Shown: one piece after another, positions 9,922 through 38,966 of the stretch
How positions within the stretch are numbered: position 1 is the stretch's first letter
Layout: each line of letters starts with the position of its first letter
NCBI GenBank assembly: GCA_004321885.1
Contig: SCQK01000005.1
Coordinates: forward strand, 1-38,966
DNA from: Patescibacteria group bacterium
Lineage (GTDB): Bacteria > Patescibacteriota > Patescibacteriia > Magasanikbacterales > GWA2-37-8
Length of the DNA: 38,966 bases
Direction: 5' to 3'
Notes under the pieces: generated by a model
The model's input: the letters and a program-made list of their open reading frames with translations, nothing else
What the model was told of the DNA's origin: nothing
The model's database searches: none
Program-made: the position numbers and the translations under genes

Positions 9922-9940
9922 ACAGCTATAAAAATACATT

Positions 9941-10228: not shown

Positions 10229-10260
10229 GGATTCCCCCGACTTAGTCGGGGGAATGACAG
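10229..10260. repeat. family-2-related hairpin (attcccccgac-ttag-gtcgggggaat + gacag)
   Basis: ggattcccccgacttagtcgggggaatgacag just upstream of rplU. Confidence 0.6.
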
Positions 10261-10272
10261 ACGGAAAATAGT

Positions 10273-10578: not shown

Positions 10579-10593
10579 CTACCCCCTCTTAGT

Positions 10594-10615
10594 CTCCCCC
10601 TTATAAAGGGGGAGA
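10594..10615. repeat. family-1 palindromic element (tctcccccttataaagggggaga)
   Basis: perfect inverted repeat between rplU stop and recR stop. Confidence 0.8.
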
Positions 10616-11633: not shown

Positions 11634-11666
11634 CCCTCCCCTAAAAGGGGAGGGGCATGGGGAGGG
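11634..11666. repeat. family-1 palindromic element (ccctcccctaaaaggggaggggcatggggaggg)
   Basis: inverted repeat between dnaB stop and ybaB start; left flank ccccacacttta resembles flank of copy at 11252. Confidence 0.8.
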
Positions 11667-16348: not shown

Positions 16349-17554
16349 ATGACCGAAGGCAGAGGCAGACACGGCCTTTCTTGGTCGGATTTACAAAAAA
16401 AGCCGGAAGAAAAAAAGCCGGATGTGCGACGAGAAGCCGGGAAGCGCGGATTATTCAAGCTCTTGGAAAATTCCAATCTGGCTAAAGCCATTGTTTTTGC
16501 CTTGGGTATTTCGGCTGCTCCGGAAACGGTGGGTTTTGGGAAAAGAGCTGAAAGCGCGGTTGTTCAAAAACAGGAAAAAATATCCGCACCGAAAATTTCT
16601 AAACCGGAGACAGCGGTTGAACAAGAGATTAAACCGGACGAGAGGTCGGTGGAAGAAATATTTTTAAGCGAGCTTCCTTACAGAAAGAATAAGAGAGAGC
16701 GCGATTTTTTAATAAAGAAAACGAACGACCGGTTGCGCGACGAAAGCGGCAATTTCAATAAAACAAGATTTGGCGAGCAGGATAGTATGTTAAGAGCGGC
16801 GCATCGTCAGTATTTGGCAACAGCGGCCGACAGCCCGGAAATTAAGGCAAAAAAGGCCGCGGAAAGACAGCGGACGTTAGAGCTTGTGGAAAAAGCGTGC
16901 GTTAAATACGGGGTACCTCTGCAAGTGGCTTTGGGCGTGGCGGAAATTGAGAGTTATGGCTCGCATTATGGCAAGGGCGGCCAGGTGACAAGGTCGGAAA
17001 AAAACGCCTTTGGTATTTTTCAGGTAAAGGTGGGCGGCCTGCTTGACGCCATCTCGGCGGACAGCGGGGCCATACCCGACGGCTTCTGGAAGTGGAAAGA
17101 AGCGCAAAAGAAAAAAGGAAGGAAAAACAAAGCCGGTAAGAGAGAAAAAATTTGGGATATGCGAAAAGCGGCGCCTCTGATTGAGCGGTTAAAAAACGAC
17201 CGGAATTTTAACATTGACATCGGCGTGCGTTTGCTGGCGAAAAACAGGCGGGTTTACACCGGCGGCCGCAGCTGGGCTTTCGCGCTGGCGATGTATCATC
17301 AGGGGGTTGGCAACGTAGCTAAAGCGTTTGTGGAGAAATTCAAAAGACAAGGCCTGGCGCCGAAAAAATTAAAAAGAGAACTTTATCCGCTGTTTTTGAA
17401 GAAAGCGATTAAGCGCGGCACGGCCCTGGCGACTGATATCAAAGACGGTTATCCATATCGGGTGGGAGTGGGCCAGCAGCTTTTTTCTATTTTACAAAAG
17501 GGCGAAATAGATTCTATTGAAAAATCAAAATTAACTCCTCCGCATAAAAAATAG
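16349..17554 (+). CDS. lytic transglycosylase (SLT-domain) protein
   Basis: VALGVAEIESYGSHYG...NAFGIFQV and ALAMYHQGVGNV resemble SLT family-1 catalytic E-S and AYNxG motifs; N-terminal hydrophobic anchor. Confidence 0.6.
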   Translation: MTEGRGRHGLSWSDLQKKPEEKKPDVRREAGKRGLFKLLENSNLAKAIVFALGISAAPETVGFGKRAESAVVQKQEKISAPKISKPETAVEQEIKPDERSVEEIFLSELPYRKNKRERDFLIKKTNDRLRDESGNFNKTRFGEQDSMLRAAHRQYLATAADSPEIKAKKAAERQRTLELVEKACVKYGVPLQVALGVAEIESYGSHYGKGGQVTRSEKNAFGIFQVKVGGLLDAISADSGAIPDGFWKWKEAQKKKGRKNKAGKREKIWDMRKAAPLIERLKNDRNFNIDIGVRLLAKNRRVYTGGRSWAFALAMYHQGVGNVAKAFVEKFKRQGLAPKKLKRELYPLFLKKAIKRGTALATDIKDGYPYRVGVGQQLFSILQKGEIDSIEKSKLTPPHKK

Positions 17555-17619
17555 TGAAAAAATAAGATAGAACATATACGGTAGAAAGTTTTTCGGGAAT
17601 GTAGTATACTAAGGGCAAT

Positions 17620-20588: not shown

Positions 20589-20632
20589 TGTGAATTATTT
20601 GTGTCGTTTCGTGTTATAGGATTAGTGGTTCG

Positions 20633-21043
20633 TGGAGGTGGCGAGAGTTGAACTCGCGTCTAGAGAGCCATGATTATACCTTCTACATAATTAGTTCGGC
20701 TTGGTATTTTACCGAAGGGATAAAAGCGAACGAAAATCTCTTCGGCTAGCCGCTGAATTTTGGGTCTGTCGCCAGACCCCATTTTCTCAAAAGCGCGCGG
20801 CCTAACTTTTGAGTAAGCCCGGAAGTGGCACCGCTTTTAGCCGACGGGCGTAGCTAAGGCGATGGTCAAACGCAAATTAAGCGAATGACGGAGCCAAGGC
20901 GCGAACGCCAAACATGTTGGCGAACGCTACCTTAACTTTTGAGAATAAGTTGGCACTTATTGTGTTGCTTTGCTATTTGCGAGGCCAAAGCCGCCTCGTT
21001 ATGCCAATATAACCATCTGCTTCTATCGAAGCCCATCACCCCC
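20633..21043 (-). ncRNA. ssrA: tmRNA (SsrA), ~411 nt, not in ORF track
   Basis: minus-strand 5' end GGGGGUGAUGGGCUUCGAUAG matches tmRNA consensus GGGGxUGAxxGGxUUCGAC; 3' end GACGCGAGUUCAACUCUCGCCACCUCCA nearly identical to E. coli GACGCGGGUUCAACUCCCGCCAGCUCCA (T-arm + acceptor, G3:U70 pair); CCA not encoded; candidate tag ORF ANMFGVRALAPSFA-UAA (approx 20877-20921); immediately downstream of smpB. Confidence 0.85.
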
Positions 21044-21482
21044 GGCTTTTCAAGGTTCGTTGTATTTCTCTCTTCGCGTCGCGGCGCTTGATGACCTCTC
21101 TTTTATCGTATTGCTTGCGCCCGCGCGCCACTCCTATTTCCACCTTGACAAATCGGCCTTTAATATACACCCGCAAAGGCACTATTGTCAAGCCCTTTTC
21201 CATTGATTTGCCGCGCAAATAAGCGATTTCTTTCTTGCGTAAAAGCAAGCGGCGCGTGGCCGCGGGGTCGTATTCAAGCATTTTGCCGGCCGGTTTGTAC
21301 TTGGCGATATGCATGTTTATGATATCGGCATTGTCGCCATGGAAAGTAACATAAGCGCCTTTCAAATTTATCTGCCCGTTTTTGGCCGACTTGGTTTCCT
21401 GGCCCGACAACACTAAACCAGCCTCTAATTTTTCCAGAATTTCATAGTCAAATAGTGCTTTGCGATTTTCGGCGAGTTGCAT
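21036..21482 (-). CDS. smpB: SsrA-binding protein SmpB
   Basis: C-terminal 148 aa of ORF 21036..21941 (MQLAENRKALFDYEILEKLEAGLVLSGQETKS...HDPAATRRLLLRKKEI...GLTIVPLRVYIKGRFVKVEIGVARGRKQYDKRE) match SmpB; ATG at 21480-21482 preceded by TATAAT; upstream 153 aa of ORF are basic low-complexity and overlap a real membrane-protein gene on the other strand. Confidence 0.88.
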   Translation of the reverse strand: MQLAENRKALFDYEILEKLEAGLVLSGQETKSAKNGQINLKGAYVTFHGDNADIINMHIAKYKPAGKMLEYDPAATRRLLLRKKEIAYLRGKSMEKGLTIVPLRVYIKGRFVKVEIGVARGRKQYDKREVIKRRDAKREIQRTLKSRG

Positions 21483-21513
21483 ATCGCGCTCTATTATACT
21501 ATAATATCGGCGT

Positions 21514-22305
21514 ATGTTCAAACGGCTGTCTCTCCACCCCAAACTGGTGGCGGTTGTTGATACGCTCATTACCCTGGCCATGCTGTGGTGGCTGAATGGG
21601 ATGAGCTCAAAAATTGTTTTGGCGCTCTGGTTTGTTTTTCGTCTGGCCATCTGGGCCGGTTTTATAAAACTGATGTATTTTTCCGCCGGCGCCAGCCGCG
21701 CGCGCCATTTTTTGTCTTTATTGATTTTTTGCGCGGGCCTGCTGACATTTATTCTTTTTACCGAGTGGACGCCGGCGCGCCTGCTCTTTGAAGCAATTTT
21801 CGCGCTCTTTCCTTTTTTTGGTTTTTGGCTTTTGCCGGCCTCGGAGGCCGGCCTTCCCACTTTTTTGAAGCCCCATTCGCGCCTGTCGTTTATGATGTGC
21901 ATCATCGGTCTGGCCGGAATTTTCGCTTTGGTCTCCGCCATCTCATCGTTTCAACTGCTCACCAGCGTCAGCGCGTGGGTGTGGATTGTTTTAGCTTCGC
22001 TCGTCGCTACGGCCGTGGCTGGCTGGTGGTGGTTTGAGTACGGCCTGAAAGTGGACGACAAGTTTATTTCCCGTCTCGCCATTTGGTTTGTGATGTTTTT
22101 GGAATTTTTATGGGTGATTCTAATACTGCCGTTCGGATACATGGTAAATGGCCTGCTCACCATTTGGTGCTGGTATATTTTGTGGCTTTTGATGCGCTTT
22201 AACATGACCGAAGAGGGAATCAAGTGGCGCAAGCAGGCGCTGTTTCTGGTTTCAAACGTTGTTTTATTTGTGGGATATTTGCTGTTGGCGGTTAAGTGGA
22301 AATAA
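21514..22305 (+). CDS. hypothetical polytopic membrane protein (263 aa)
   Basis: multiple hydrophobic helices, W-rich; no family recognised. Confidence 0.5.
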   Translation: MFKRLSLHPKLVAVVDTLITLAMLWWLNGMSSKIVLALWFVFRLAIWAGFIKLMYFSAGASRARHFLSLLIFCAGLLTFILFTEWTPARLLFEAIFALFPFFGFWLLPASEAGLPTFLKPHSRLSFMMCIIGLAGIFALVSAISSFQLLTSVSAWVWIVLASLVATAVAGWWWFEYGLKVDDKFISRLAIWFVMFLEFLWVILILPFGYMVNGLLTIWCWYILWLLMRFNMTEEGIKWRKQALFLVSNVVLFVGYLLLAVKWK

Positions 22306-25735: not shown

Positions 25736-25763
25736 CATCCCTCCCTTTTAGGGGAGGGGCAGG
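25736..25763. repeat. family-1 palindromic element (catccctcccttttaggggaggggcagg)
   Basis: inverted repeat ccctccc-tttta-ggggagggg. Confidence 0.75.
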
Positions 25764-26024: not shown

Positions 26025-29000
26025 ATGGTTAAGCCTGGTGATAAAAACGAAAAAGCGAAACCCGCCCCCAATAACGGCGAGGCAAATTTTACGGCGGAAA
26101 ATAAAATGATTAGAGCGCGAATTGAGCAGTTGTTTTCTGAATTGAGCGCTCTGGCGCAAGAGGTGCGCAAAAGACCGGGAATGCAGTCTGAACTTAATCA
26201 AATGCTTGAAACTCTTGCTAAACAGGAAACCAAAATCTCCTCATTGGATAAAGATAAGGTTGCTGAATTAGAAGAGGAATTGCAAAAATTGGAAGAGAGA
26301 ACACAGGAGTTAATTGATGAGATGAAAGAAGAAGAAAGGTTATACAGGGAAGAAGAAGCGCCGGACGCGGTGGATTATTCCAAGGAAGACAGCCAGGAGC
26401 GGCGACAGAGGCTGCTTAAATTTGGCAAAGACCTGAAAGAAATTGTTGATTTTTTTGAGCAGGGAGCTAACAATGACGCGGAAAAAATATTTTTGCAAAG
26501 CGCCATAGAATTATTGGAGGAAGGCAAAAAATTGGATATAACCGCCATGAACCATCCACTCGCAAAGCAATTGCCCGACGATTGGTTTGTGGATGTTGAC
26601 GCGTTCGTCAATAAAGCAAAACAACTGTATACAAAGTTTTCAACGTATAAGTTTGAATATGCTAAAAAGATAGTTCCAGGCGAGCCTAAGCCAAAAGAAC
26701 CGGTAAAACAGGAAGCGCCGACAAAGGAGAGCGAGACACCCGCTTCCACGGGGGCGGAAGCCGCGAAAGAAGTTCCGGCGTATTTGAAATTGGCCGCCGA
26801 GGTGGAGCGCATGGGGTTGGAATTAAAAGAGGCGCTTGATTCACCCAAAGCGCCGGCGGTGAAAAAGAACGCCATCAGGCTCGTTTTAGAAATGGCGAAT
26901 AAGCCCGGTAATGTTATTTCCAGGGTAAAGGACAATAATAAATGGGTTAAGGCGGCGCAAAATTGGTTAAGTTTGGCAAGAACGGCGCTGGAAGAACAGG
27001 CGCCGGCGGTACCCGCGCCGGCTGATGCCAAAGCCGCGTCAAATAATGAAAAAAATAAAGCAAAGAGCGACAGCTTGCTTTTCAACAAGTTGGTCCGGCA
27101 TCTACACGAAAAATTCAGTGATTTATTAAAATCAGATAAGGCTTTAATAAAGAGGCTTAAGGGACTGAAAAAACTTTTTGGCTACCCTGAATTTGACGGA
27201 GAGTTTGTTTCGCTCCTCAAAGACCTTGGCGTTAATCCGGATGATGTCAAAAAAATTGTTATAAAAGAATCCGACCGGAAGGATAAACGCGAAGAAAAGG
27301 AAAAAGGAAAGAAAAAAGATTACAAGTTTGAAATCAAAGGCGCGCGCCGGATTTTACGGGATGCCGTAAAACTGATTAATGACCCTGAAAAAGCCAAACC
27401 ATACAGAAAATTAATCGGGCAACTTGGCGAATTTAGTGAAATTTTTAACGCGCTTAGGAAAGATAAATTAACAGACCAAAAAAGGCAAGAATTGCAACAA
27501 AAAAGAAAAGATTTGCTTCATAAAAAACCCGATGGAATTTTCACGCAGGACGCGCAAAACAGCGATTTGCTGGAGAATGCGAAAAGAATAATCGCGTCCG
27601 CGGCCGGCGCCGTCCAACCCAAGCCCGGCAAATCGCCGAGCGCCGTGAAAACAACCGGCGCCGCTTCTACTCCGGCGCCCGCCAAGACACCCGATGCTCG
27701 GACAGTTGCAGCACCGTCTGCCCCGCGCGCGCCCTCACTAGCTCCGCGGGTGGATACGGGCTCGGCGTCGGCCGCGGCTGTGGACACGGCTCCGCCCGCG
27801 CCTCCGCCTCCGACGCCGCCCGACACTGCCCCACGCGAACCAGAACCAGAACCAGAACCAGAACCGCGCCCGGTTAAAAAAATTATTGACATCAAAGAAA
27901 CAGCGCTTTTGGAATTGATGAAACCGCACAAATTGCAGGAGGTTGTCAATCAGTTGATTCAGGGCAACGCGGCTGTCGCCGAAACCCTGTTTAGCAATAT
28001 CTTCGCGCGCGACGATGTTGATTTAGAAAGATTGCGCGAAGTGGTGGGACAGGACGGCTACACATCGGAAGAATTCAAAAATCTGTGGCTGGAACAGCTT
28101 CATAAACGCCCGTTTCGGATGATAAAAGACAATTTGGAACAGATGACGCGGAATTTTATCGCGCAAAACACCGGTAAAATAGAAAAAATTATACAAAAGT
28201 TGCCGGCGGCGAAAGCGATTATTCTGCAGGCATTGCCTTATCTGGCCATCGCCGGCGCCGGATTTTTTGCGGCCTTGACAGGCGGCGGCATTATCGGGCT
28301 TACCGCGGCCGGCGCGGCTTCGGGTCTTTGGCGCGGCATTTCCAAAAAAGTGGAAGGCGTGCGCGGCTGGATTTCCAAAAAAACCAAACAATTCAAGCAA
28401 AAAGGAGACGAAAGAGAGGCCTATAAAGAAAAAGAACAAAGAGAAGGCCTTTTGTTGATGCGGGATTTGATGGCGCAGTTTAATAATAATCAGGAATTGC
28501 TTTCCCAGTTGTCGTCAATGATCAGCCAGGGCTTGCGCGAGAGCAGCGCCCAAGAACGCGCCGAGTCTTTGGGCAAAGACAGAAACACAATTATCGCCAA
28601 CGCGGAACTGGCCATCGGGCAAATAAAAGAAAAATCCGAAGAAGAATACAGGCATGGTATTGGCAGAAAAGGCGAGGCAGACGCGCGCCTTGATAAAGAA
28701 AGCCAGGGCCGGCGCGCCGAGGCGCTTATCATGAAATTATACGAAAGCAACGAGATGGAAGATTTGATCCAGGAAGCCCTGCAAAAAGACCCGAAATTTA
28801 TCAGAGTACTAAAGGGAATAAACGCCTTGAAAAGTCTTGATTTGGATGAACTGGTTGAATCAGCCACGGGCAGGCGCGCTGATGTTGCCAAAAAAGAAAG
28901 CACCCTGAAAAAAGTCGCCTGCATCCTTGCTTCCGGAATTGCCGGCGGCGCCGTGGCCTATGGCCTGTCGGCGCATAATGCCTGGAGGCCGGTGGTAGCT

Positions 29001-31361
29001 GGTTTGGTCGGCGCTTATTTGGGCGCCAGATTTGGGCATCATCGGGAGATTAAGGCCCGCCAGCGTGAGTTCGCGGCCGAGTTTGAAAGAAATGTGGACG
29101 AGGCAGAGCAGGTTATCATAGAATACGAGGCCGTTACCGATTTAGCCGCGTGGCTGGGTGCTGATGGCGAAGAAAAAATTCGTCAATTGCAAAACAGGGC
29201 CAGAAAGTTGCGCACTCCTTTAACCTTGGGCATGCTGGACGATAATAAGCCTTTGAAATATCGGGCGCAAAACGCCTTGCGGCGCGTGGAAGCGATTTGG
29301 CTGACTATTTATTTGAATAATTCGGATATAGGTATAACAAGAAGAACATTTGACCCGGCTGTGGAAGGACCGGAAGGCGCCAGTGAAAGAGATGTGCACA
29401 CAGATAGCGCCGTGGAAAATTTGCTTACAGTCCTAGACAGGGAAGTGGAGATTCTTACCGAGGACCAAAAAGAGGTAAAGGAAACATTAACCAAAAAACC
29501 GGGCTGGTGGAAAACTTTTGCTTGGAGTCTTGCCGGCGCCGGGGGCGCGGGATTGCTGGCTTATGAAATACAGGGTTGGCGGGAGAGCGGCAAAAAATTG
29601 GACGAAGCCGGCTTTATGCCACAAGAGGAACCGCCGGCAAGCGGAGGCAGGGGAGACGCGGCTGGCGCGGCAGACACGGCCAGGGCCGCGAAAGGACAGA
29701 TAAAGCCGTTGCCCGGCGAGATTGAATTTCATCCGCCAACGGCCACTGAAAAGAGTCGGGTGTTTTTGGAAAATATGGGCGCCAAGCCAGGGGCTGGCAA
29801 TAAATTTACCATTGAACTTGGCAAAGGCGAGACGCCGGCAAACAAGTCGGAATTTTTCCGTTTGCTGGCTTTGAACGGAATGAAAGGTAAAGTGCTGGGT
29901 GATGACGGAGTTTTATCGCCTCTGGAACAAGGCAAGGTGTTGAATGTGGGCAGGAATATGCTGGAATTGGCTGGCGGGGCCAAAGCGCGCGGCGGTTTGC
30001 CGCTGGCGGATTTCAAAGAGCATTTCAGTATGAAAGGCAATAAAGTTACCATTACTGATTTTGATAAATTTCAGGAAAAAATAATCGGCAAATTGTCGGC
30101 GCACGCGGATGAAAAATTTACCAAGCAGACCATGGCCGACACGCGCGCCGGAAAAATGACCGCTATAAAATACGGGGCCCGCGCCAACTGGGAAAAAGAT
30201 TTTGCTAAAATTGGTTATGAGGCCAACGCGCCCCGCGAGCATTTTGTTGTGCCCGAAGACGTGAAAGATATAAAAGATGAAGTAGTTGACCCGGACGCTG
30301 GCAAAGCGCCGGCAGACGCGCCCGAAGCTCAGGCCGCCACCAAACCTGAACAGGTTTTTGAAGTGGACAGGAATGTATTTGGAGTGGAAAAACACCTGGA
30401 ACTCACAAACAGCGAGACAAAAATCGTTGACGCTGCCATTCGCAAAATGGATTGGATAGCGAATAAAACCCATCTATCCGGCGATGGGCTGGAGAATTGG
30501 AGCAAGGCCTTTGGAACGATGGATGACGCCATGGACCGCCTGCAAACAAATCTTCACGACCCGGATTCTTTGGCAAAGTTAAAATATATTGGTTCATTAT
30601 CAGCCGCGGAACTAAGCAAAACACCCGACACAAAATTTGCCGCCATAATAGACAATATTAAAGGCGGGTCAAAAGGAGGCGGGGGAGGGGCTGATGAAAT
30701 TGTCCAAAAAGGCGGCAAGGCCAAGGTGGCGGCGGTTGAGGCGGCAGAACCAAAAGCGTCTGAGTGGATCGCGGGCCATAAAGCGGCCGAATACCAAGAA
30801 TTTGTTGATCGTGTTAAAGGCGGTAGGGATTTGTTTGTGAAAAGAATGATAAAAACATCCGGAATTAGTGAAGGTAAACTTGATGAACTCTTGCAAAAAT
30901 TTGCGCGCGGGCATAAGGGAATAAATTTGACTAACGCTGAAACTGAAGAAAAGTTTCGGACTTGGCTGGCCATGGAATTGGAAGAGTCAGGAACCGCGTC
31001 AGCGGCAGTAACGGAAAAATTATCCACAGCCAACCCCGTGGCCATAGGCGAAGCCAAGGGTGGGCAAAAGTTGGTACAATTTTTGGACAACAAAGGCAAA
31101 ACGCGCTCCTTGGAAATAGCTGAAAAATTTGAACCCAAGAAAGGAGAAAAAGGAATTGTTTCGCTCGTCATGGACATTACGGACAAAAACGGCACGTATC
31201 AAGCGCGTCAAGACGGAAAATTTGAAATGAGAATGATAGGACACAAAAAAATGCCGGTGTTTGTTATTAGTAAAATGGAGGGTGAGGGAAGCGCGGCAAA
31301 GGATGTAGAGCATATTTACGCTATAAAAAATAATGGTCGTGAGATAGTATTGCAGAAGTGA
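26025..31361 (+). CDS. giant hypothetical protein (1778 aa): N-terminal coiled coil, Pro-rich linker, three central hydrophobic segments, ~800-aa C-terminal region
   Basis: single uninterrupted ORF with consistent codon usage; hydrophobic segments LPYLAIAGAGFFAALTGGGIIGLTAAGAASGLW, VACILASGIAGGAVAYGLSAHNAWRPVVAGLVGAYLGARFG, WWKTFAWSLAGAGGAGLLAYEI; PEPEPEPEP linker. Confidence 0.7.
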   Translation: MVKPGDKNEKAKPAPNNGEANFTAENKMIRARIEQLFSELSALAQEVRKRPGMQSELNQMLETLAKQETKISSLDKDKVAELEEELQKLEERTQELIDEMKEEERLYREEEAPDAVDYSKEDSQERRQRLLKFGKDLKEIVDFFEQGANNDAEKIFLQSAIELLEEGKKLDITAMNHPLAKQLPDDWFVDVDAFVNKAKQLYTKFSTYKFEYAKKIVPGEPKPKEPVKQEAPTKESETPASTGAEAAKEVPAYLKLAAEVERMGLELKEALDSPKAPAVKKNAIRLVLEMANKPGNVISRVKDNNKWVKAAQNWLSLARTALEEQAPAVPAPADAKAASNNEKNKAKSDSLLFNKLVRHLHEKFSDLLKSDKALIKRLKGLKKLFGYPEFDGEFVSLLKDLGVNPDDVKKIVIKESDRKDKREEKEKGKKKDYKFEIKGARRILRDAVKLINDPEKAKPYRKLIGQLGEFSEIFNALRKDKLTDQKRQELQQKRKDLLHKKPDGIFTQDAQNSDLLENAKRIIASAAGAVQPKPGKSPSAVKTTGAASTPAPAKTPDARTVAAPSAPRAPSLAPRVDTGSASAAAVDTAPPAPPPPTPPDTAPREPEPEPEPEPRPVKKIIDIKETALLELMKPHKLQEVVNQLIQGNAAVAETLFSNIFARDDVDLERLREVVGQDGYTSEEFKNLWLEQLHKRPFRMIKDNLEQMTRNFIAQNTGKIEKIIQKLPAAKAIILQALPYLAIAGAGFFAALTGGGIIGLTAAGAASGLWRGISKKVEGVRGWISKKTKQFKQKGDEREAYKEKEQREGLLLMRDLMAQFNNNQELLSQLSSMISQGLRESSAQERAESLGKDRNTIIANAELAIGQIKEKSEEEYRHGIGRKGEADARLDKESQGRRAEALIMKLYESNEMEDLIQEALQKDPKFIRVLKGINALKSLDLDELVESATGRRADVAKKESTLKKVACILASGIAGGAVAYGLSAHNAWRPVVAGLVGAYLGARFGHHREIKARQREFAAEFERNVDEAEQVIIEYEAVTDLAAWLGADGEEKIRQLQNRARKLRTPLTLGMLDDNKPLKYRAQNALRRVEAIWLTIYLNNSDIGITRRTFDPAVEGPEGASERDVHTDSAVENLLTVLDREVEILTEDQKEVKETLTKKPGWWKTFAWSLAGAGGAGLLAYEIQGWRESGKKLDEAGFMPQEEPPASGGRGDAAGAADTARAAKGQIKPLPGEIEFHPPTATEKSRVFLENMGAKPGAGNKFTIELGKGETPANKSEFFRLLALNGMKGKVLGDDGVLSPLEQGKVLNVGRNMLELAGGAKARGGLPLADFKEHFSMKGNKVTITDFDKFQEKIIGKLSAHADEKFTKQTMADTRAGKMTAIKYGARANWEKDFAKIGYEANAPREHFVVPEDVKDIKDEVVDPDAGKAPADAPEAQAATKPEQVFEVDRNVFGVEKHLELTNSETKIVDAAIRKMDWIANKTHLSGDGLENWSKAFGTMDDAMDRLQTNLHDPDSLAKLKYIGSLSAAELSKTPDTKFAAIIDNIKGGSKGGGGGADEIVQKGGKAKVAAVEAAEPKASEWIAGHKAAEYQEFVDRVKGGRDLFVKRMIKTSGISEGKLDELLQKFARGHKGINLTNAETEEKFRTWLAMELEESGTASAAVTEKLSTANPVAIGEAKGGQKLVQFLDNKGKTRSLEIAEKFEPKKGEKGIVSLVMDITDKNGTYQARQDGKFEMRMIGHKKMPVFVISKMEGEGSAAKDVEHIYAIKNNGREIVLQK

Positions 31362-31411
31362 GTTTATTCAAAAACAGCCCTGAGTTTTTTTGCTGTTTTT
31401 GCGCCCTCCTC

Positions 31412-31439
31412 TTGACAGTCGCATTATTTATGGTATCTT
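31412..31439 (+). promoter_or_regulatory. candidate promoter (TTGACA-16-TATCTT) at low-GC/high-GC boundary
   Basis: cttgacagtcgcattatttatggtatcttt; followed by hairpin cccaaaacagg-tgtttttggg. Confidence 0.35.
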
Positions 31440-31600
31440 TACCTGTTCCCAAAACAGGTGTTTTTGGGTATAAATAATATAGTCTTTGAAAATTAAAGTA
31501 GGTTTGGCGCTTGGCGCCACAACAGGGCAACGATAAGGACGTGCCCTAACAGCGAGCCACGACAAGGACGAGCTCGCAAACGGAGAGAATGGAGAGAGAG

Positions 31601-33487
31601 ATGAGCGATGAGAGAAACGAGGGAAGGAGCCCCCTCTGGAACGGCTCCCGGGACGAGGGCCCGCAGCGACCCCACACACCAACGCTTGATGGTCTGGTAG
31701 CTGTGGTCGACCAGCCGGAGGAGCAGCCCGCACTGCTTCATTGCCCGTGCGGGTGGCAGGTGTACTCGCGGGCTACGGCGAAGATAGCCATGGTCAGCAA
31801 CTCGTGTCCGCTGACCGGAGACGAGCTGGCCCTGACGGTGGAGGATGTTGCGAAGCTCGCGGACGAACTTCGCGATGTCCACGCCTTCCCCATCCGCACC
31901 TTCTTTCAGAAGGTGCAGTTCCCGGTGACGGTCGTCTGCGACTGCGGCGACTCGGAGCTGGAATTGGTGGAGAGCGGGGTGGAGGAGGAGTGTGTGAAGT
32001 GCCGCCGGCACTATGTCATTACCGCGGACGCGGAGATGTACATGGTGATTGACAAGAAATTGGCGCGGCCGGACACGCTCCGCACCGGCCAGCCCGTGGC
32101 GCCCACGGCTTCGGGTGAGGTGGACTCGCGTCCGACCATCGCGCCGGCCGGGCCCGACGAGGAAACGCGGGTCGGAGAGCCTGTCCCGCTGGTGGAGACG
32201 TCGGACGTCCCGGACGACGCCCAGACCAGCGAGCGCGTTTCGCCTCCGCCGGAGGAGTCTGGTCATCAGATGGTCCAGGCGCCGGACGCCGACCCCTCGG
32301 ACTTCGAGGGCAAGAGCCCGACGGCTCCTGGCGTAATACCCGAAGAGGAGCTGGTGGCTCTGGAGCTGATGGCTTCGTTGGCAGCGGCCGCCAGCGGTCC
32401 GGCCCAGGGCCCGGCTTTTGACCAGTCGGGTATGGCCGTGTTGGACGTGAACTGCCCGGAGTGCAGAAGGGTCTTCACGGTCAATCGCGAGCTGGGTGCG
32501 GCGATGTGTCCGCACTGCAGGGCCGTGTTTGAGGTTTTGGTAGCGGGCGGCCGGGTTGAGTTTGTCCGGTGCGTGGTGCCGGGCAACAAACTGCCTCCGC
32601 CCACCCCGCTCGACGCGGGCGGCAGAACCCAGCAGGGCTTTGTCTCGCCCGTGCCGCCGAGGCAGGACCCGCCGACGTTGGATCAGCCCCTCGCCCAGCT
32701 CGATGTTCTTCGGGACAAGAGCCGCGAGAGGTCACAGCCCGGCGAGTCCGAGGCGTCTGCGTTGCCAGCACCCGCGGAGGCGATTCCGCTCTCCGCCATC
32801 GCGGCGCCGACCGGCGTCGGACCGAGCTTCAAGCTGGTGGACGTCTCCCGGGCGCGTTTGCGCGCGAGCGTCAGTCTCGGCCCGAAGGACCGACAGTCAA
32901 CGGGCGAGATTCGCCCAGCGGCGCGTCGCCTGCCTCGCTGGGTCCATGGCGCGTTCGGCGTGCTCGGGCTCGGATTCTGTGTGCTCTTGGGGATAGTGCT
33001 GAATCAGGGCGCTCTCCTCAAGGAGAACACGCGGCGGAGCCAGGCGGCCGAGCAGAAGAGTGCCGCGGCCGAGGAGCAGAGCAAGGCCGCGGCGAAGGAT
33101 AGTGCCGAGGCTGTGCTCAAGAGCGCGCGGGCCGAAGTTGAGGCCAAGACCGCCAGAAAAACGGCGGACAAGGCCAATACCCGATTGGACACGCAGGAGG
33201 CGGCGCGCGAGAAGCTGGACAAGGAGCTCGCCGCCAGCGCACGGTCTGTCGCCGCCTTCCAGAAGGCGACGAATACGGCCATTGGGAACATCAAGGGCCA
33301 GGTCGCTAGACAGAGTGCTGATCTGCGTCAGACAATCGCAAGGGCGCAGGCAACGCTTGACCAAATCAAGCGCGACCTGGCTTCGGCGAACGCGGCGCCC
33401 GCCAAGCGCGTCCCGCCATCGTTCCTACCCGCCAAGGTTCCCAAGATGCGCCCCCCGGATCACCTGATACGGCGTCGCAACGACTAA
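31601..33487 (+). CDS. zinc-ribbon (MJ0042-like) / single-TM / C-terminal coiled-coil protein, GC-rich
   Basis: three CxxC...CxxC pairs (HCPCGW..SCPLTG; CDCGDS..CVKCRRH; NCPECRRVF..CPHCRAVFEV); TM VHGAFGVLGLGFCVLLGIVL; A/K/Q-rich coiled coil; GGAGAGAG SD before ATG 31601. Confidence 0.55.
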   Translation: MSDERNEGRSPLWNGSRDEGPQRPHTPTLDGLVAVVDQPEEQPALLHCPCGWQVYSRATAKIAMVSNSCPLTGDELALTVEDVAKLADELRDVHAFPIRTFFQKVQFPVTVVCDCGDSELELVESGVEEECVKCRRHYVITADAEMYMVIDKKLARPDTLRTGQPVAPTASGEVDSRPTIAPAGPDEETRVGEPVPLVETSDVPDDAQTSERVSPPPEESGHQMVQAPDADPSDFEGKSPTAPGVIPEEELVALELMASLAAAASGPAQGPAFDQSGMAVLDVNCPECRRVFTVNRELGAAMCPHCRAVFEVLVAGGRVEFVRCVVPGNKLPPPTPLDAGGRTQQGFVSPVPPRQDPPTLDQPLAQLDVLRDKSRERSQPGESEASALPAPAEAIPLSAIAAPTGVGPSFKLVDVSRARLRASVSLGPKDRQSTGEIRPAARRLPRWVHGAFGVLGLGFCVLLGIVLNQGALLKENTRRSQAAEQKSAAAEEQSKAAAKDSAEAVLKSARAEVEAKTARKTADKANTRLDTQEAAREKLDKELAASARSVAAFQKATNTAIGNIKGQVARQSADLRQTIARAQATLDQIKRDLASANAAPAKRVPPSFLPAKVPKMRPPDHLIRRRND

Positions 33488-33572
33488 CCGAGCGCTCTTT
33501 CCGCGGCGTGTGTGAGTATGTAAGCAGAGGTGAATGAAAATTCCTTCCGCTTCCCTCCCACTCCACACGCCA

Positions 33573-33620
33573 ATCCCCCTATGATTCCAAATTTTGGAAT
33601 TATAGGGGGATTTTTGTTTT
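33573..33620 (+). terminator. long palindrome + T-run (atccccctatgattccaaa-tt-ttggaattatagggggat TTTTGTTTT)
   Basis: near-perfect 19-bp inverted repeat followed by U-run, downstream of zinc-ribbon gene. Confidence 0.55.
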
Positions 33621-33631
33621 ATTCAAATTTT

Positions 33632-33652
33632 CCTCCCCTATTAGGGGAGGGG
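33632..33652. repeat. family-1 palindromic element in GC-rich segment (cctcccctattaggggagggg)
   Basis: identical core to copy at 1507. Confidence 0.8.
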
Positions 33653-33711
33653 CAAGGGGTGGAGTTTTACCTTTATCTTAGCCAAAATTCGTTCTCTTAT
33701 CGAAAAATCTC

Positions 33712-33740
33712 TTGACAGAAATACCGAACTGTGCTATTCT
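33712..33740 (+). promoter_or_regulatory. sigma70-like promoter (TTGACA-17-TATTCT)
   Basis: cttgacagaaataccgaactgtgctattct upstream of ORF 33787/33892. Confidence 0.45.
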
Positions 33741-33891
33741 TAACAGTTAAAATCAAATTAGTTTCAATGCGCGAGAGAGGCATTGTATGAGGATTTCACT
33801 CATCAAGCCACTCCCGCGTCCACGGGTTTTTTTCTTTACAATCGTCTCTGACATTAGTAATGCCGGAGCACAACAAGAAAGGAGGCCAGGA

Positions 33892-34515
33892 ATGGCCGAT
33901 GAACCGAAAGTCATCGTCGAGGTAGACAAGGAGTGTCTTTTTTGCAAGCGGGACATCCCCCAGCTCCAGGAGGAGCTGGCGGGTGTGAAGAAGTTGCAAG
34001 AGGCGCAGGAGGACGCGGTCGGTGGCAGTTTGCGCCGACTGCGTATGGGTATGACGGCCTTCGCGGTCGCGTTGGCGTTGATTGTCGTCATCAGTCTTGT
34101 TGTGGTTTACATCCGCCTGACCGAGACGACGGGCCAGCGCGCCGCTCCGGTTCCCAGCCGGCTGGTCCAGCGCTTGTCCCAGACAGAACAGCGTCTGGGC
34201 AAGCTGGAGGGGACCATCGGGCTTTTGAAAAGCGCGATGGAGAGGCTTGCGGAGCAGTTCGGAAAGGTGCTCTCCGACATCACCAAGATGCCGAAGGCAT
34301 CACAACCGCCTGCCTCCCAGCCGGTGGTCACTGCGCCGCCGCTCCGGACAACGCCGCTTGTCAAGACGGCCAAGCCGAGTGAAAGAGAGGGCCTGTTGCC
34401 CTGCAAGCAGGAGAAGGAGTCCTGCGTAAAGGGGAATGAAGGTCGCGTCGGCAAGGAGAGGGCCCTGCAGTTTTGCGCCACTTTCTTCAGACAGGGAGGG
34501 CCGAACTGCAAGTGA
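33892..34515 (+). CDS. hypothetical TM + coiled-coil protein, GC-rich (start could be 33787)
   Basis: AGGAGG 6 nt upstream of ATG 33892; TM AFAVALALIVVISLVVVYI; coiled-coil segment. Confidence 0.45.
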   Translation: MADEPKVIVEVDKECLFCKRDIPQLQEELAGVKKLQEAQEDAVGGSLRRLRMGMTAFAVALALIVVISLVVVYIRLTETTGQRAAPVPSRLVQRLSQTEQRLGKLEGTIGLLKSAMERLAEQFGKVLSDITKMPKASQPPASQPVVTAPPLRTTPLVKTAKPSEREGLLPCKQEKESCVKGNEGRVGKERALQFCATFFRQGGPNCK

Positions 34516-34598
34516 GTAGGGTCTCCTCACCGCCACGCCGCATTCCAGCCGCCGAGACCCATCCAACCCAATGTATATGACTGTTATTTCGGTACGCT

Positions 34599-34630
34599 AT
34601 GTCATTCCTGCCATAAGAGCAGGAATTTAT
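34599..34630. repeat. family-2 hairpin element in GC-rich segment
   Basis: tgtcattcctgccataagagcaggaattta; upstream flank cccaatgtatatgactgtt shared with copy at 35575. Confidence 0.7.
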
Positions 34631-34873
34631 CACCGGAATTCACGGTCGTATACAGTGAATTTGGAAGGAACATTACAATAAGCGAAATGAGCGAGTAAAT
34701 AATTTTGCTTGCAAAATTATTTCGAGCGAATGAGCTTTATATCATTGATATATTCTGGTTCGCAAAAAGGACAGGTGTCATTGCGAGCGAAGCAATCCCG
34801 TCTTATTTGCGACCCAGAATTTCAACCCGGTTTCCGCCTGCTGGACGCAGGCAAAAATGAAAGGAGGCACATT

Positions 34874-35470
34874 ATGTGCCGTCTGATCGGAGAGCTCGAC
34901 GGCGAGCTGTTCGCCGTCGAGCTGAACAAGCTCGGCGCTGTCCCCCCCTCCCCCAACCAGCCCCCGGCGGCCCCGCCCCGGCCCGGCGGCGGCGCCCAGC
35001 CGCCCGTTGGCGCGGGCGCGCCCCCCGCGGGCGCGTGCAGGGCCACGCCCTGCCGGTTCTCGTCGTGGCTGATCATTGCCGCGGTGGGGCTGGCAGCGGT
35101 GGCGATCATCATCACGATGATCGCCCTGCGCGACGGCAAGTCGGCGCAGGTCGCGCCCGCGGTCGCCCCGACCAAGTCGGTGCCGGCTACTCCGGCTGCC
35201 GCGGCCGCGACGCCCGCCAAGCCGGCACTCCCCCCCAATCAGATTGGCGCCCTGCCGGTCTACGGGGGCGGCGTGCACCTCCCCAGCATCACGCTGGAGG
35301 TCGCTCGCCCGCCGGTTGCGCCCGCGCCGGTCCTACCGCCCTTGGCCCCGCCGCCCGCGCCGAGCGCGGCGTTCCCGTCCTGTGACCAGGACGCGGAGTG
35401 CCTCGCGCTTGTCGCCGCCCACGGCGCCGGCGCCCGCCCCCGCTGCCCGCAGTTCTTCAACTGCCGGTAG
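34874..35470 (+). CDS. Pro/Ala-rich single-TM hypothetical protein
   Basis: AAAGGAGG SD 6 nt upstream of ATG 34874; TM WLIIAAVGLAAVAIIITMIAL; PA-rich low complexity. Confidence 0.45.
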   Translation: MCRLIGELDGELFAVELNKLGAVPPSPNQPPAAPPRPGGGAQPPVGAGAPPAGACRATPCRFSSWLIIAAVGLAAVAIIITMIALRDGKSAQVAPAVAPTKSVPATPAAAAATPAKPALPPNQIGALPVYGGGVHLPSITLEVARPPVAPAPVLPPLAPPPAPSAAFPSCDQDAECLALVAAHGAGARPRCPQFFNCR

Positions 35471-35574
35471 CGTGCGTCACCCCGCCGGGCCTTGTGGCTC
35501 GGCCCCTCCTTTCAACCCAGGGTCGGACATTCGCCTCGCGACTGTCCGACCCTTCCATCCCAATGTTTACGATT

Positions 35575-35603
35575 GTCATTCCTGCCCACGAGCAGGAATC
35601 CAC
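35575..35603. repeat. family-2 hairpin element (tgtcattcctgcccacgagcaggaatcca)
   Basis: same arms as 4621 copy. Confidence 0.7.
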
Positions 35604-35671
35604 AATGGCAAACATTGATAGTGGAGTACATTACAACACTCACGGTGTGAAGTTATCTGCCCCTCCTCACT

Positions 35672-35696
35672 CCTCCCCCTTTATAAGGGGGGGAGG
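35672..35696. repeat. family-1 palindromic element (cctccccctttataagggggggagg)
   Basis: inverted repeat in GC-rich segment. Confidence 0.8.
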
Positions 35697-35941
35697 CGGG
35701 GAGGGGGTATAGCTCCACCCCGTGAGAATTATCACGGTTTGATATAGCAACCAGGCCGATTTCTTCAAACGCAAAATCCCCACCCATGTGGGACCGCGAA
35801 CCGCTGTATATACCCCTTTGGACCAAAAGTCCGAAAACGGGAAACAGCGCAAGCGGATAAGAAGAAAACGGCTTAGCAAGTTCATGAAGTATAGGCCGGC
35901 CCTGCACGCGCGAGCGGAGGGTCAAAAAAAGGAGAAGAACG

Positions 35942-36793
35942 ATGTTGAAGATGGTTGCGGCGATGATCGCCGCGCTGTACATCCTCGCGGTGAGTGCCAC
36001 CTCGGCGCTCGCCCAGAACACCCCCCCCGCGGCGGTCGCTCCGGCCGCGAAGTCATCGGCGATGCAAATCGCCGACCTCACCCTGAAGTTCGAGAAGGCC
36101 GAGAGCGACATCGCGTCGCTGAAGGCCAAGCTCGCGGCGCCGGCCCCGACCGCGCCAGACGGCAAGGCATTGTGCCAGTTCTGGGCACCGTGCAAGAACG
36201 CCGTCGCCGACGAGGCGGGGAAGATCCAAACGGTGATCAAGACCATCAAGGTCAAGATTGCCGACCCATCTCTCCTCGCCAAGCTCCGCCTGGCGGAGCT
36301 CGAGCTCGCGAAGCTCACCGAGCGGCTCGGCGCCCAGGCCGGGCTGGCCCAGCACAACGCGGAGGCCGCGAAGGGCCAGCTCGCGCTGGCTGGTCAGGTT
36401 CTGGCCATGGGTCAGCACCCGGAGCTCGCGAAGTACGCGCGGTGTCGGGGCGGCTTCAAGCTCAGGACCACGGTCTACACGCCGACGAGTTCAACCCTTT
36501 CGCTCGACTGTGAGCGAGAGGTTGACCTCGCGCGGGTGGAGAAGGTGGAGGGCCCGCTCGCCGCTGCCCAGGCGGCCGCGGCCGCTCGCCAGCCCCTCGC
36601 GCCCCCACCCGCGCCGGAGAAAAAGTCCGGCCGGTGCGGAACCGGTTGTATCATCGCGGCCATCACGATCCCGGCTGCGATCGTCGGTGCCGTGGTCGTC
36701 GGTGCTCTGCTCGCCACCCGTGAGGACCACAACACGGTGGTGACACCGACGAAGACGACCTCCGCGCTGAGCATCCGGTTCAAGGGGCTGTAG
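35942..36793 (+). CDS. secreted coiled-coil protein with signal peptide and C-terminal TM anchor
   Basis: AAGGAG SD before start; signal peptide MLKMVAAMIAALYILAVSATSALAQ; C-terminal TM CIIAAITIPAAIVGAVVVGALLA. Confidence 0.5.
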   Translation: MLKMVAAMIAALYILAVSATSALAQNTPPAAVAPAAKSSAMQIADLTLKFEKAESDIASLKAKLAAPAPTAPDGKALCQFWAPCKNAVADEAGKIQTVIKTIKVKIADPSLLAKLRLAELELAKLTERLGAQAGLAQHNAEAAKGQLALAGQVLAMGQHPELAKYARCRGGFKLRTTVYTPTSSTLSLDCEREVDLARVEKVEGPLAAAQAAAAARQPLAPPPAPEKKSGRCGTGCIIAAITIPAAIVGAVVVGALLATREDHNTVVTPTKTTSALSIRFKGL

Positions 36794-36980
36794 GCTGTAG
36801 ATAGTACACACGCGTCTCTGAGACATTGCGCGTGCACTCCCAATGATCTGTACAACCGATCCCAATCGGGCGTACAGTTACGGGAGGGTCTCGCCATTGC
36901 GCACGCGCAATGGCTCCCAATTATTTTCCTATGCTACGCATGGGGAAATTGAGGGAATAGATCATTACAACAACAAACTG

Positions 36981-37000
36981 CCTCCGCCGATAAGGGGAGG
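36981..37000. repeat. degenerate family-1 element (cctccgccgataaggggagg)
   Basis: partial inverted repeat upstream of lipoprotein gene. Confidence 0.4.
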
Positions 37001-37032
37001 CGCAACAGTTGTTAGAAAGAGAGGAGGTCGCC

Positions 37033-37890
37033 ATGACCAAGGCGACGACGAAGAGAAGTGGAACGGCCACGGCGTTCGTGGCAACCCTCGCGATGGGGAT
37101 CATCATCGCCCTTGGTGGTTGCGCCACCAAGGAGAACGTGACCGTGGAGTACCCGGGGTCCACCACGACGGTGACCCCGCCCACGGCGACGCCCGAGCCC
37201 GGTCGGCTCGGAGGTCCGTGCCTGAACGGCGCCTGCCTGGACAAGGAGGCGGTCTGCGACTCCGGATTCTGCCGGTTCCGCACCGGCCCCGGGTCGTCCA
37301 ATACCTGTGGCAACGGCGCTTGCCAGGCGGACCTCGGCGAGACGTACACCACCTGCCCCCAGGACTGCGGCAAGGCCCCTGGCTGTCCCAGCGGTCAGTG
37401 CGACCCTGGCGAGTCCAGCGCGACGTGCCCCCAGGACTGCCCGGCTAACACGGCCAGCTGGTCAGTTCAGCTGGAGATTCGCTCCAGTGCCGCTGGCTTG
37501 ACCCATTGCCACACGTACACGGCGGGGGCGGTGCCGGCACTGTACGACAGCCACCAGGGACAGACGCCGCTCAAGTTCTCGCTGTCCTTCAGCGAGGCGT
37601 GCGTCAAGAAGTTGCCCGGGTCCTGGGTCGGCAACTCCAACGGCCTGTACGCCGTGGAGATCAAGTGCGCACAGTCGCCGGAGGGGCCCAAGACGTGGTA
37701 CGATGAGCCGGGCATGCCGACCATGGCCGGGACCATCTCGGTCTCGATCAACAACGGCTCATTCCTCGCTGTTGTGCCGTCGGGCGGCGACTTCAACACC
37801 GCACCGGTAATGGAGGTGCCGGGCTCGCACCCGGTGGCGAACAGGGCGGGCAACGCCGTCGTCAGCGCGACGCTGATGAAGTGCCCGTAA
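37033..37890 (+). CDS. Cys-rich lipoprotein (lipobox LGGC), with CxNGxC..GE..TCPQDC repeats
   Basis: GAGGAGG SD then ATG 37033; MTKATTKRSGTATAFVATLAMGIIIALGGC signal/lipobox; repeats CGNGACQADLGETYTTCPQDCG and CPSGQCDPGESSATCPQDCP resembling myxococcal-type Cys-rich repeats. Confidence 0.6.
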   Translation: MTKATTKRSGTATAFVATLAMGIIIALGGCATKENVTVEYPGSTTTVTPPTATPEPGRLGGPCLNGACLDKEAVCDSGFCRFRTGPGSSNTCGNGACQADLGETYTTCPQDCGKAPGCPSGQCDPGESSATCPQDCPANTASWSVQLEIRSSAAGLTHCHTYTAGAVPALYDSHQGQTPLKFSLSFSEACVKKLPGSWVGNSNGLYAVEIKCAQSPEGPKTWYDEPGMPTMAGTISVSINNGSFLAVVPSGGDFNTAPVMEVPGSHPVANRAGNAVVSATLMKCP

Positions 37891-38148
37891 GGAGAACACA
37901 ACCGCGCTATACGCGGGACCGCAGCGATGCGGAACCACAATCACCAGCGCGTAAAGGATAGAATTGGCCGAGCGGAGATTAACCACATTTTTCGCTCGGC
38001 CGCTGTACTTACCGCATAATATTTTTGTGCGGTGGGTATGGGGGAAAAATTCATATGACGCATTTAACCATCTCTCTCCCGCCAATTTATTTGGCGGAGT
38101 GACTAAATGCTTCAGTTGAATGCCTTGTACTGAAAAGTAAAAGGCAGG

Positions 38149-38175
38149 AACCACCCCAACAGGTGGTTTTCTTTG
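38149..38175 (+). terminator. hairpin + U-run (aaccacc-ccaaca-ggtggtt TTCTTT)
   Basis: 7-bp stem followed by T-rich tract ~75 nt upstream of second lipoprotein gene; may be terminator/attenuator. Confidence 0.35.
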
Positions 38176-38249
38176 AAAAATGAAACAAACGCCTCAACCG
38201 CATGGGCGGAGAGGTGCAACCGATTGTAGAAAAAGAGAGGAGGTCGCCA

Positions 38250-38966
38250 GTGAACAAAACGGCGACGAAGAAGAGAAATGGAACGGCCGCGGTGTTCGCG
38301 GCAACCCTTGTGGTTGTAGGGTTCATCACGACCATCAACCTGTCCGGGTGTGGTAACACGACGACTGTCGTGGCCGCCAACTCAGACAGTGCGCAAAGCA
38401 ACGGCACCGAGGGTGCCACGTGCACCTACGACGGCAAGAAACCGTGCGCCACAGGATTCCTCTGCGACGCATGGAAGAAGTGCGTCCGCATCCCGATCGG
38501 CACTACCCCCACCTACGACGCCGGCATCCCGCCGACCCCGAAGCACGACACGGGCGCGCCCAAGTTCGATTCCGGCGTGAATACGGACACCGGGAAACCC
38601 GTCGGCAGCGAGGGCACTCCTTGCTACTTCGGGAGCTGTCTGACCGGCCTGACCTGCCTGTCCAACGTCTGCGTGAAGATGCAGACGAGCGACAGCGGAG
38701 TGAAGCCGGATAGTGGCAAGAACCCCGGCACCGAGGGGGCGGTGTGCATCAAGCCAGGCGATCTCTGCTTCCCCGGGCTGAACTGTCTGTCCAACGTCTG
38801 TGTGAAGATGCAGACGACGGACAGCGGCCCCAAGCCCGAGGCCGGCAAGATCCCCGGCACCGAGGGTGGCCTGTGCGTTCAGCCAGGCAACCTCTGTCTC
38901 ACGGGGCTGTCATGCCTCTCGGGATTCTGCGTCAAGCTCCCGCCCACCACCGACAGCGGGGTGAAG
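38250..38966 (+). CDS. Cys-rich lipoprotein paralog (lipobox LSGC) with ~38-aa tandem repeats; partial, continues beyond window
   Basis: own translation from GTG 38250 (open to window end, hence absent from closed-ORF track): VNKTATKKRNGTAAVFAATLVVVGFITTINLSGC...; 5' UTR agaaaaagagaggaggtcgcca nearly identical to that of gene at 37033; repeated modules DSGxKPxSGKxPGTEGxxCxxPGxLCxxGLxCLSxxCVK(M/L). Confidence 0.55.
   Translation, partial: MNKTATKKRNGTAAVFAATLVVVGFITTINLSGCGNTTTVVAANSDSAQSNGTEGATCTYDGKKPCATGFLCDAWKKCVRIPIGTTPTYDAGIPPTPKHDTGAPKFDSGVNTDTGKPVGSEGTPCYFGSCLTGLTCLSNVCVKMQTSDSGVKPDSGKNPGTEGAVCIKPGDLCFPGLNCLSNVCVKMQTTDSGPKPEAGKIPGTEGGLCVQPGNLCLTGLSCLSGFCVKLPPTTDSGVK

Follow-up and report, generated by a model that had tools for sequence, protein, structure and literature searches.

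The closest described systems to the locus presented here are the Mycoplasma Vsp/Vlp genes and the Borrelia lipoprotein genes with an upstream homology box. Like the genes studied here, these are adjacent genes with a common 5' region and signal peptide whose mature parts differ, and the resemblance extends to the in-frame tandem repeats of which one mature part of our locus (that of gene 2, below) is made (PMC10504702). At the protein level, the nearest known modules are an uncharacterised four-cysteine GTEG module of Myxococcota and those of the Pfam families DUF7107 (PF23416), Dickkopf_N (PF04706) and EB (PF01683), which are small and disulfide-rich like the one found here. We studied two neighbouring genes, gene 1 and gene 2, at the end of a 38,966-bp stretch of DNA (hereafter the window), which is the whole contig of an uncultured 'Patescibacteria group bacterium' metagenome-assembled genome (MAG) of the candidate phyla radiation (CPR), following up a first-pass annotation of the same contig. 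The surface proteins of CPR/Patescibacteria, which are thus far almost wholly uncharacterised, may take part in attachment to the host, and the locus supplies a concrete pair of probable lipoproteins. It is likely, with a probability of roughly 0.7, that these are adjacent same-strand CPR genes for disulfide-rich surface lipoproteins which share a 5' cassette, gene 2 encoding a chain of modules.

Two genes and their common 5' end

Gene 1 (EPN28_01275) is read from the forward strand at 37033-37890 and encodes 285 aa, with a predicted signal peptide at residues 1-29 and the lipobox LGGC, the codon of Cys30 lying at 37120-37122. Gene 2 (EPN28_01280, partial) follows on the same strand at 38250-38966, where 239 codons from a GTG start stay open to the contig end; its predicted signal peptide covers residues 1-33, its lipobox is LSGC and Cys34 is encoded at 38349-38351. 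Both open reading frames (ORFs) had been placed at these positions by the first-pass annotation, and they are backed by a GC content at third codon positions (GC3) of 0.88 in gene 1 and 0.84 in gene 2. The NCBI self-matches of both proteins carry the name 'Patescibacteria group bacterium'. In the public annotation gene 2 begins at ATG 38202 (255 aa), which we regard as less likely than GTG 38250, because the 18-nt block AAAGAGAGGAGGTCGCCA precedes both this GTG and the ATG of gene 1 and because the 48 nt upstream of the GTG show homology to the leader of gene 1, which is non-coding.

The homology of the two genes is limited to about 125 nt, comprising a leader hairpin, a Shine-Dalgarno block and the signal peptide as far as codon 19-20. 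The leader segment of gene 1 (36965-37002, forward strand) holds the hairpin GCCTCCGCCGATAAGGGGAGGC at 36978-37001 and is homologous to the leader hairpin segment of gene 2 (38181-38218, forward strand; CGCCTC...GAGGTG). The 18-nt block, which consists of the Shine-Dalgarno sequence and its spacer, is identical at 37016-37033 and 38232-38249 on the forward strand, and these are its only exact matches in the window (2, vs 0.01 expected). Identity amounts to 60% over the leader hairpin, to 76% over the Shine-Dalgarno region that holds the exact run and to 82% over codons 1-20, with 90% over the 48 nt at 37041/38261. On both sides of the cassette it is 43-54% in gapped alignment (51-54% after the cassette in a global alignment), the level of unrelated sequence, and BLASTP aligns the signal peptides of the two proteins alone (E = 2e-4). 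The first-pass annotation had described tandemly duplicated genes with a shared upstream sequence and N-terminus; the sharing is borne out, but it is confined to the 5' cassette and leaves out the mature parts, which do not align. The leader motifs occur only twice each within the window at the DNA level, and a sigma-70-like promoter was not detected ahead of gene 1 or gene 2.

Among the signal-peptide codons, five differences are non-synonymous and one is synonymous, as read by eye from the sequence and over few differences in all, so the conservation seems to lie in the DNA and not in the protein. This fits a recent event at the 5' end, either partial duplication or gene conversion, which would account for the shared cassette. 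Each gene is preceded by its own long hairpin-rich spacer, and the two have in common a cassette for expression and export, ~125 nt long, made of the leader hairpin, a strong Shine-Dalgarno sequence and the stretch of a lipoprotein signal peptide that spans its n- and h-regions. The cassette is a small case of expression and export signals being reused as a module.

The same cassette could also be read as the mark of a contingency locus, i.e. a phase- or size-variable surface lipoprotein family like Mycoplasma Vsp/Vlp or the Borrelia upstream-homology-box genes, in which the cassette would be a site of recombination or expression and the repeat array would change its length by slippage or recombination. 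The five-to-one ratio of non-synonymous to synonymous differences hints at gene conversion, and the conserved 5' region with signal peptide (the 18-nt exact block, and 76-82% identity over the Shine-Dalgarno region and codons 1-20) is found in two members. However, the members are only two and lie on the same strand, and no other genes with the leader were found in searches that are blind to the rest of the MAG. Furthermore, we noticed no recombinase, no inverted vis-like site or invertible segment and no homopolymer tract on reading the sequence, a dedicated search not being made, and the ORFs scanned against Pfam (those of at least 150 aa and the named genes) gave no recombinase match. The repeats, which bear on the same question, are described below.

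Both N-termini begin with a basic n-region (K3, K7 and R8 in gene 1; K3, K7, K8 and R9 in gene 2) followed by a hydrophobic h-region, with a hydropathy peak of 2.5-2.7 over residues ~12-27. The lipobox-like motifs that had been claimed for both genes are present: LGGC of gene 1 (Cys30) passes the PS51257-like and the G+LPP regular expressions, and LSGC of gene 2 (Cys34) agrees with the core lipobox, taken as [LVI][ASTVI][GAS]C with the cysteine at position 15-35, but fails both expressions. The products of both genes are probably secreted, lipid-anchored and disulfide-rich proteins of the cell surface.

The four-cysteine module of gene 2

Gene 2 contains at least four modules of the form G[TS]EG-x2-C-x4-7-C-x2-G-x2-C-x4-C, which all align with one another and are joined by DSG/KP/GK linkers (DSG-KP-xGK). 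The first of these (38403-38483; GTEGATC...C...C...C) is divergent and begins 18 aa past Cys34, and it is followed on the forward strand by modules at 38604-38672 (GSEGTPC...CLSNVC), 38727-38801 (GTEGAVC...CLSNVC) and 38856-38930 (GTEGGLC...CLSGFC). Repeated cysteine modules running off the contig end had been noticed in the first-pass annotation and are present, but the unit proposed there (~114 nt, ~38 aa, in at least three near-identical copies) needs correction. According to Tandem Repeats Finder, the period at 38636-38909 is 129 nt (43 aa), with 2.1 copies and 78% matches, and the motifs quoted as repeated occur twice each, 129 nt apart. The two best-kept copies of 129 nt each (38644-38772 and 38773-38901, together 38644-38901 on the forward strand) are 78% identical: they differ at 28 of the 129 positions, with 7 synonymous and 12 non-synonymous codon differences, and share exact runs of at most ~16 nt. 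The two upstream modules, which are older, are just 63-70% identical over a 40-nt core. The chain seems to have grown through in-frame tandem duplication of the 129-nt unit.

Copies that have diverged this far are not near-identical repeats and, with exact runs this short, form a poor substrate for slippage, which speaks against a contingency locus, as do the lack of a long array in gene 1 (a 24-aa duplication only) and the lack of any phage or diversity-generating retroelement signal. On the other side, both available assemblies end within the module array. The independent Logan assembly of SRR8426592 has a contig of 3852 bp, the only other contig found with gene 1, which is identical to the window over 35025-38876 and stops at 38876, 90 nt earlier than the window and inside the array. 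However, the other end of the Logan contig (35025) breaks in non-repetitive GC-rich DNA, and the breaks may merely reflect coverage. All in all we hold a contingency locus to be improbable, and a shade more improbable still its fullest form, a host-dependent CPR bacterium in which a small lipoprotein family, an exchangeable 5' cassette and a length-variable array of hairpin modules make up a Vsp-like contingency system for variation of the surface or of host attachment. To our knowledge, no such system has been described in Patescibacteria. The identity of the independent assembly over 35025-38876 also makes an assembler-specific artefact or collapse inside the window unlikely, a concern the first-pass annotation had raised about the repeats. 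As a separate matter, gene 2 was considered as the target of a diversity-generating retroelement and this was rejected, the 28 mismatches having no adenine bias and the Pfam-scanned ORFs including no reverse transcriptase.

In a word-indexed search of 5.8 billion proteins the sole match of gene 2 was gene 2 itself. A profile of its four modules, searched exhaustively against 1.84 billion representative proteins with a cut-off of E<1e-3, retrieved 103 proteins with E from 1e-16 to 1e-3. The consensus in these relatives is pGTEGGPCYxNGTCNxGLxCxSNxCV, of which the G, the E, the four cysteines and GL are invariant, and the module is ~30 aa long (the period in gene 2 being 43 aa). Copy number was followed in 98 relatives, with one module in 67, two in 17 and three to five in 14; the first module lies within residue 90 in 85 of the 98, comes after a lipobox-like motif in 41/98 and stands beside a C-terminal hydrophobic/basic anchor in 7/98. 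The typical relative has a lipoprotein signal peptide, the module, a PD-rich linker and then NHL, Kelch, LamG or other beta-propeller domains, and in others the module stands immediately ahead of a MYXO-CTERM sorting signal. The proteins with a named source come from Deltaproteobacteria or are called MYXO-CTERM proteins. Among species-representative genomes the module was confirmed at 39 loci, mostly in Polyangia, Myxococcales and other Myxococcota, with one other Patescibacteria MAG among them. A widespread four-cysteine module is thereby defined (103 representative proteins, mostly of Myxococcota), typically beside a membrane anchor, and a Pfam-style family made from it would be a useful gain for annotation.

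The contig of that other Patescibacteria MAG (JBDRLV010000041.1; L021 in our numbering) carries neighbouring lipoprotein genes at 740-1615 and 2668-4722, with 2 and at least 6 related modules, respectively. Their lipoboxes are ALSC and LLAC, and each protein ends in a unique C-terminal domain. The module is here a variant with five cysteines (C.CY.N.TC..GL.C....CV), and poly-Asp linkers separate the copies. Since L021 carries two such genes, the present genome is not alone in having multi-module lipoproteins of this kind.

A few of the relatives pass Pfam models, namely those of DUF7107, Dickkopf_N, EB and Stig1; for instance, P0010 matches DUF7107 at 8e-11 and P0036 matches Dickkopf_N at 7e-10. 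Sequence comparison links gene 2 to DUF7107, Dickkopf_N and EB only transitively, via these relatives. The structure of the module was predicted, as suggested in the first-pass annotation, and the AlphaFold model from a 70-sequence module alignment is a small beta-hairpin with a predicted local distance difference test score (pLDDT) of 82.6 and 23 residues at 90 or above. The top Foldseek matches of this model, all non-significant, are the N-terminal region of Dkk4 and then toxins of the two- or three-disulfide knottin or disulfide-directed-hairpin (DDH) type. The module is thus predicted to be a Dickkopf-N/DDH-like beta-hairpin stapled by disulfides, and we file gene 2 under no Pfam family. 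As the module in the relatives usually adjoins a membrane anchor, it may act as a stalk or binding knob, rigid and stabilised by oxidation, on which the protein would stand out from the cell surface. A role in adhesion, for instance to host cells, is plausible.

Small cysteine modules also occur in gene 1, where a Thr/Pro linker is followed by module A, two further four-cysteine modules and a domain of ~150 aa, giving three small modules ahead of one larger domain. Module A (37210-37272, forward strand; GGPC-x4-C-x6-C-x4-C) resembles the gene 2 module in general type. The next two, C(G/P)xGxC...GE...TCPQDC at aa 92-112 and 118-136 (37306-37440, forward strand; also written CGNGxC...GE...TCPQDC), stem from an internal in-frame duplication of 72 nt (24 aa) that the first reading had overlooked, 37330-37368 and 37402-37440 being 77% identical. 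These CPQDC modules are the sole part of gene 1 with homologues, all matches being confined to residues ~42-166, and the homologues are proteins of Patescibacteria and Deltaproteobacteria (P0003-P0007) with many such modules in tandem. No relative of the C-terminal domain (37441-37887, forward strand) was detected in Pfam/NCBIfam or in the protein searches. BLASTP of gene 1 against the L021 lipoproteins was negative and the C-terminal domains are not detectably related. The AlphaFold2 model of gene 1, computed from the single sequence and no alignment, had a pLDDT of 40 and is not interpretable.

Several results weigh against two surface lipoproteins with a shared cassette and a module chain. 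The lipobox of gene 2 fails the PS51257-like and G+LPP expressions, in both cases only at position -4 (Asn), and neither lgt nor lspA is present within the 38,966-bp window. Gene 2 matched no model of Pfam (none at E<=0.1) or NCBIfam, and Foldseek gave nothing significant for the module model (best E-value 0.9). Gene 2 is truncated by the contig end, which makes its number of modules a lower bound and puts its C-terminal part outside the window. A profile of the two N-termini yielded no additional genes with the cassette, leaving a family of two; the leader 21-mer had no match in the genome and metagenome contig collections searched, and therefore the MAG is absent from those collections. Finally, the function that we propose is drawn from position and architecture. 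A search of the literature on Patescibacteria lipoproteins turned up nothing relevant, and neither did one on SRR8426592.

Hairpin-rich spacers and the origin of the terminal genes

The spacer between the two genes (37891-38249, forward strand; 359 nt) is filled by six consecutive hairpins, with a minimum free energy of -121 kcal/mol over 37891-38180 (z = -8.4), and the spacer ahead of gene 1 is likewise strongly structured (z = -6.1). The last of the six (38149-38175, forward strand) is terminator-like, AACCACC-CCAACA-GGTGGTT then TTTCTTT, and lies 259 nt past the gene 1 stop and 75 nt ahead of the gene 2 start. Its stem-loop (38149-38168) has a stem of 7-8 bp, a dG of about -11 to -12 kcal/mol and z = -1.4, and is followed by UUUUCUUU. 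The first-pass annotation had taken it for a possible attenuator in the leader of gene 2. The hairpin and the U-run are indeed there, and in favour of a regulatory attenuator they lie 75 nt ahead of the start codon, with no sigma-70-like promoter detected between the hairpin and the start. However, the structure is the last of six that fill the spacer, hairpin-rich spacers are general across the contig, and taken singly the hairpin is of unremarkable stability. No counterpart stands at the equivalent position ahead of gene 1, though further downstream the two leaders show homology, Rfam gave no match (none to any family over 33000-38966), and neither an alternative antiterminator pairing nor a leader peptide was identified, no systematic search having been made. 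Hence we give little credence to attenuation, and the hairpin looks like the intrinsic terminator of gene 1, which is the simplest reading, or like generic spacer structure.

Most intergenic regions of the contig are packed with hairpins, with z from -3 to -9 against mononucleotide shuffles that covered all but the last two control regions (examples are 9775-10600, 33488-33891, 35471-35941 and 37891-38249). The spacers are long (200-800 nt) and hairpin-rich, which is unusual for a reduced CPR genome. A dispersed palindromic element, CCCTCCCCT(T)-AWT-(A)AGGGGAGGG with a stem of 7-10 bp, has 9 matches where 0.08 are expected. Its sites lie at 1508-1528, 1969-1991, 2002-2024, 9249-9271, 9761-9781, 10593-10615, 10831-10849, 11634-11654, 14424-14445, 25739-25758, 33632-33650 and 35672-35696. 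Several copies stand within ORFs (beta-CASP, RecR and a 700-aa ORF) and are reminiscent of in-frame palindromic insertions, and others are found 12-17 nt ahead of start codons, the 3' arm resembling a Shine-Dalgarno sequence. The leader hairpins of both genes resemble decayed versions of this contig-wide CCTCCCC...GGGGAGG palindrome. Additionally, a spacer segment is repeated at 34556-34630 and 35548-35605 (33 nt, 82% identical), in each case followed by a CATTCCTGCC...GCAGGAAT hairpin and downstream of one of two consecutive genes. An identical CTCTTGACAG occurs at 31407-31416 and 33707-33716 with TATCTT or TATTCT 16-17 nt further on, giving sigma-70-like promoters ahead of the genes at 31589 and 33892.

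Codon usage shifts sharply at 31589-38966 compared with 1-31361. All six genes of this terminal stretch appear to encode membrane or secreted proteins, some of them Ala/Pro-rich or coiled-coil.

The last 7.4 kb might then be foreign, either a recent transfer from a high-GC donor of Myxococcota type or an assembly chimera. GC3 is 0.80-0.88 in the four genes of the stretch for which it was computed in frame (31589, 35942, gene 1 and gene 2; the values for those at 33892 and 34874, computed out of frame, were excluded) vs 0.51-0.71 for the rest of the contig, strong AGGAGG sites precede 5 of the 6 genes from 31589 on and are missing from most other contig genes, and the relatives of the gene 2 module are overwhelmingly from Myxococcota. 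Yet the intergenic GC of the stretch (0.44-0.55) matches that of the rest, and both the hairpin-packed spacers and the palindrome CCCCTANTAGGGGAGGGG (9 matches vs 0.08 expected) are found in the two parts of the contig alike. The other Patescibacteria MAG has multi-module lipoproteins at ordinary GC, and the CPQDC modules of gene 1 have Patescibacteria relatives (P0004). A foreign origin of the genes therefore strikes us as possible but on the whole doubtful. Because intergenic GC, palindrome, hairpin spacers and Patescibacteria relatives agree, a chimera is unlikely; an older acquisition of the coding parts from a high-GC lineage is possible.

The remaining genes of the contig are ordinary bacterial ones (beta-CASP RNase, MraW, a ClpB-like ATPase, MraY-type GT4, RecR, DnaB and IF3), accompanied by SmpB adjoining the transfer-messenger RNA (tmRNA), by a VirD4-like coupling protein and a protein with an SLT domain, and by an ORF of 1778 aa to which Pfam has no match. 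The tmRNA gene overlaps the end of smpB, and 20632-21043 (reverse strand), 21036-21941 (reverse), 16349-19395 (forward) and 26025-31361 (forward) make up the region with the SLT-domain protein, the VirD4-like coupling protein and the family-less 1778-aa ORF; these three may belong to a module for conjugation or a similar transfer of DNA. At the other end of the contig, a small Cys-rich ORF at 95-577 (forward strand) has repeated NCGxCGxxC motifs and a Pfam Stig1 match (E = 9e-13). It has no obvious signal peptide, with in-frame stops upstream, and is a second disulfide-rich protein on the contig. As the missing end of gene 2 it was rejected, in-frame stops lying ahead of the ORF and the protein being Stig1-like. 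A phage origin was rejected as well, there being no meaningful PHROG matches and no relatives among viral contigs.

Comparison with known systems

Compared with the Vsp/Vlp and Borrelia families, the present locus has two genes where those are large families, its repeats are diverged (78%), and there is no sequence homology. Switching machinery or variation of the Vsp/Vlp kind was not seen here, a dedicated search for such machinery not being made. The locus is a fairly ordinary one, and current thinking would stay unchanged unless variation of the array is demonstrated. As for DUF7107, Dickkopf_N and the EB module, some of the relatives retrieved by the profile pass these models, whereas gene 2 stays below the gathering threshold with no match at E<=0.1, and the structural E-values are all at or above 0.9. 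Dickkopf_N, moreover, has ten cysteines vs four in the gene 2 module.

The resemblance to the GTEG module of Myxococcota is closer, as the G-x-E-G motif and the spacing of the four cysteines are the same, the flanks are of the PDxGK type and the module comes soon after the lipobox cysteine. It differs in that the relatives mostly have a single copy together with NHL, Kelch, LamG or other domains, while gene 2, on a Patescibacteria contig, carries four or more in tandem, and in that the loop between the first two cysteines reads IKPGDL/VQPGNL in gene 2 and YPNGT in the relatives. The lipoproteins of the other Patescibacteria MAG (L021) differ from ours in the extra cysteine (CPCY...), in the poly-Asp linkers and in that its two genes have no leader or signal peptide in common. 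What they have in common with our locus is the setting, two lipoprotein genes side by side, and a related module in several copies, which in L021 stand ahead of a C-terminal domain.

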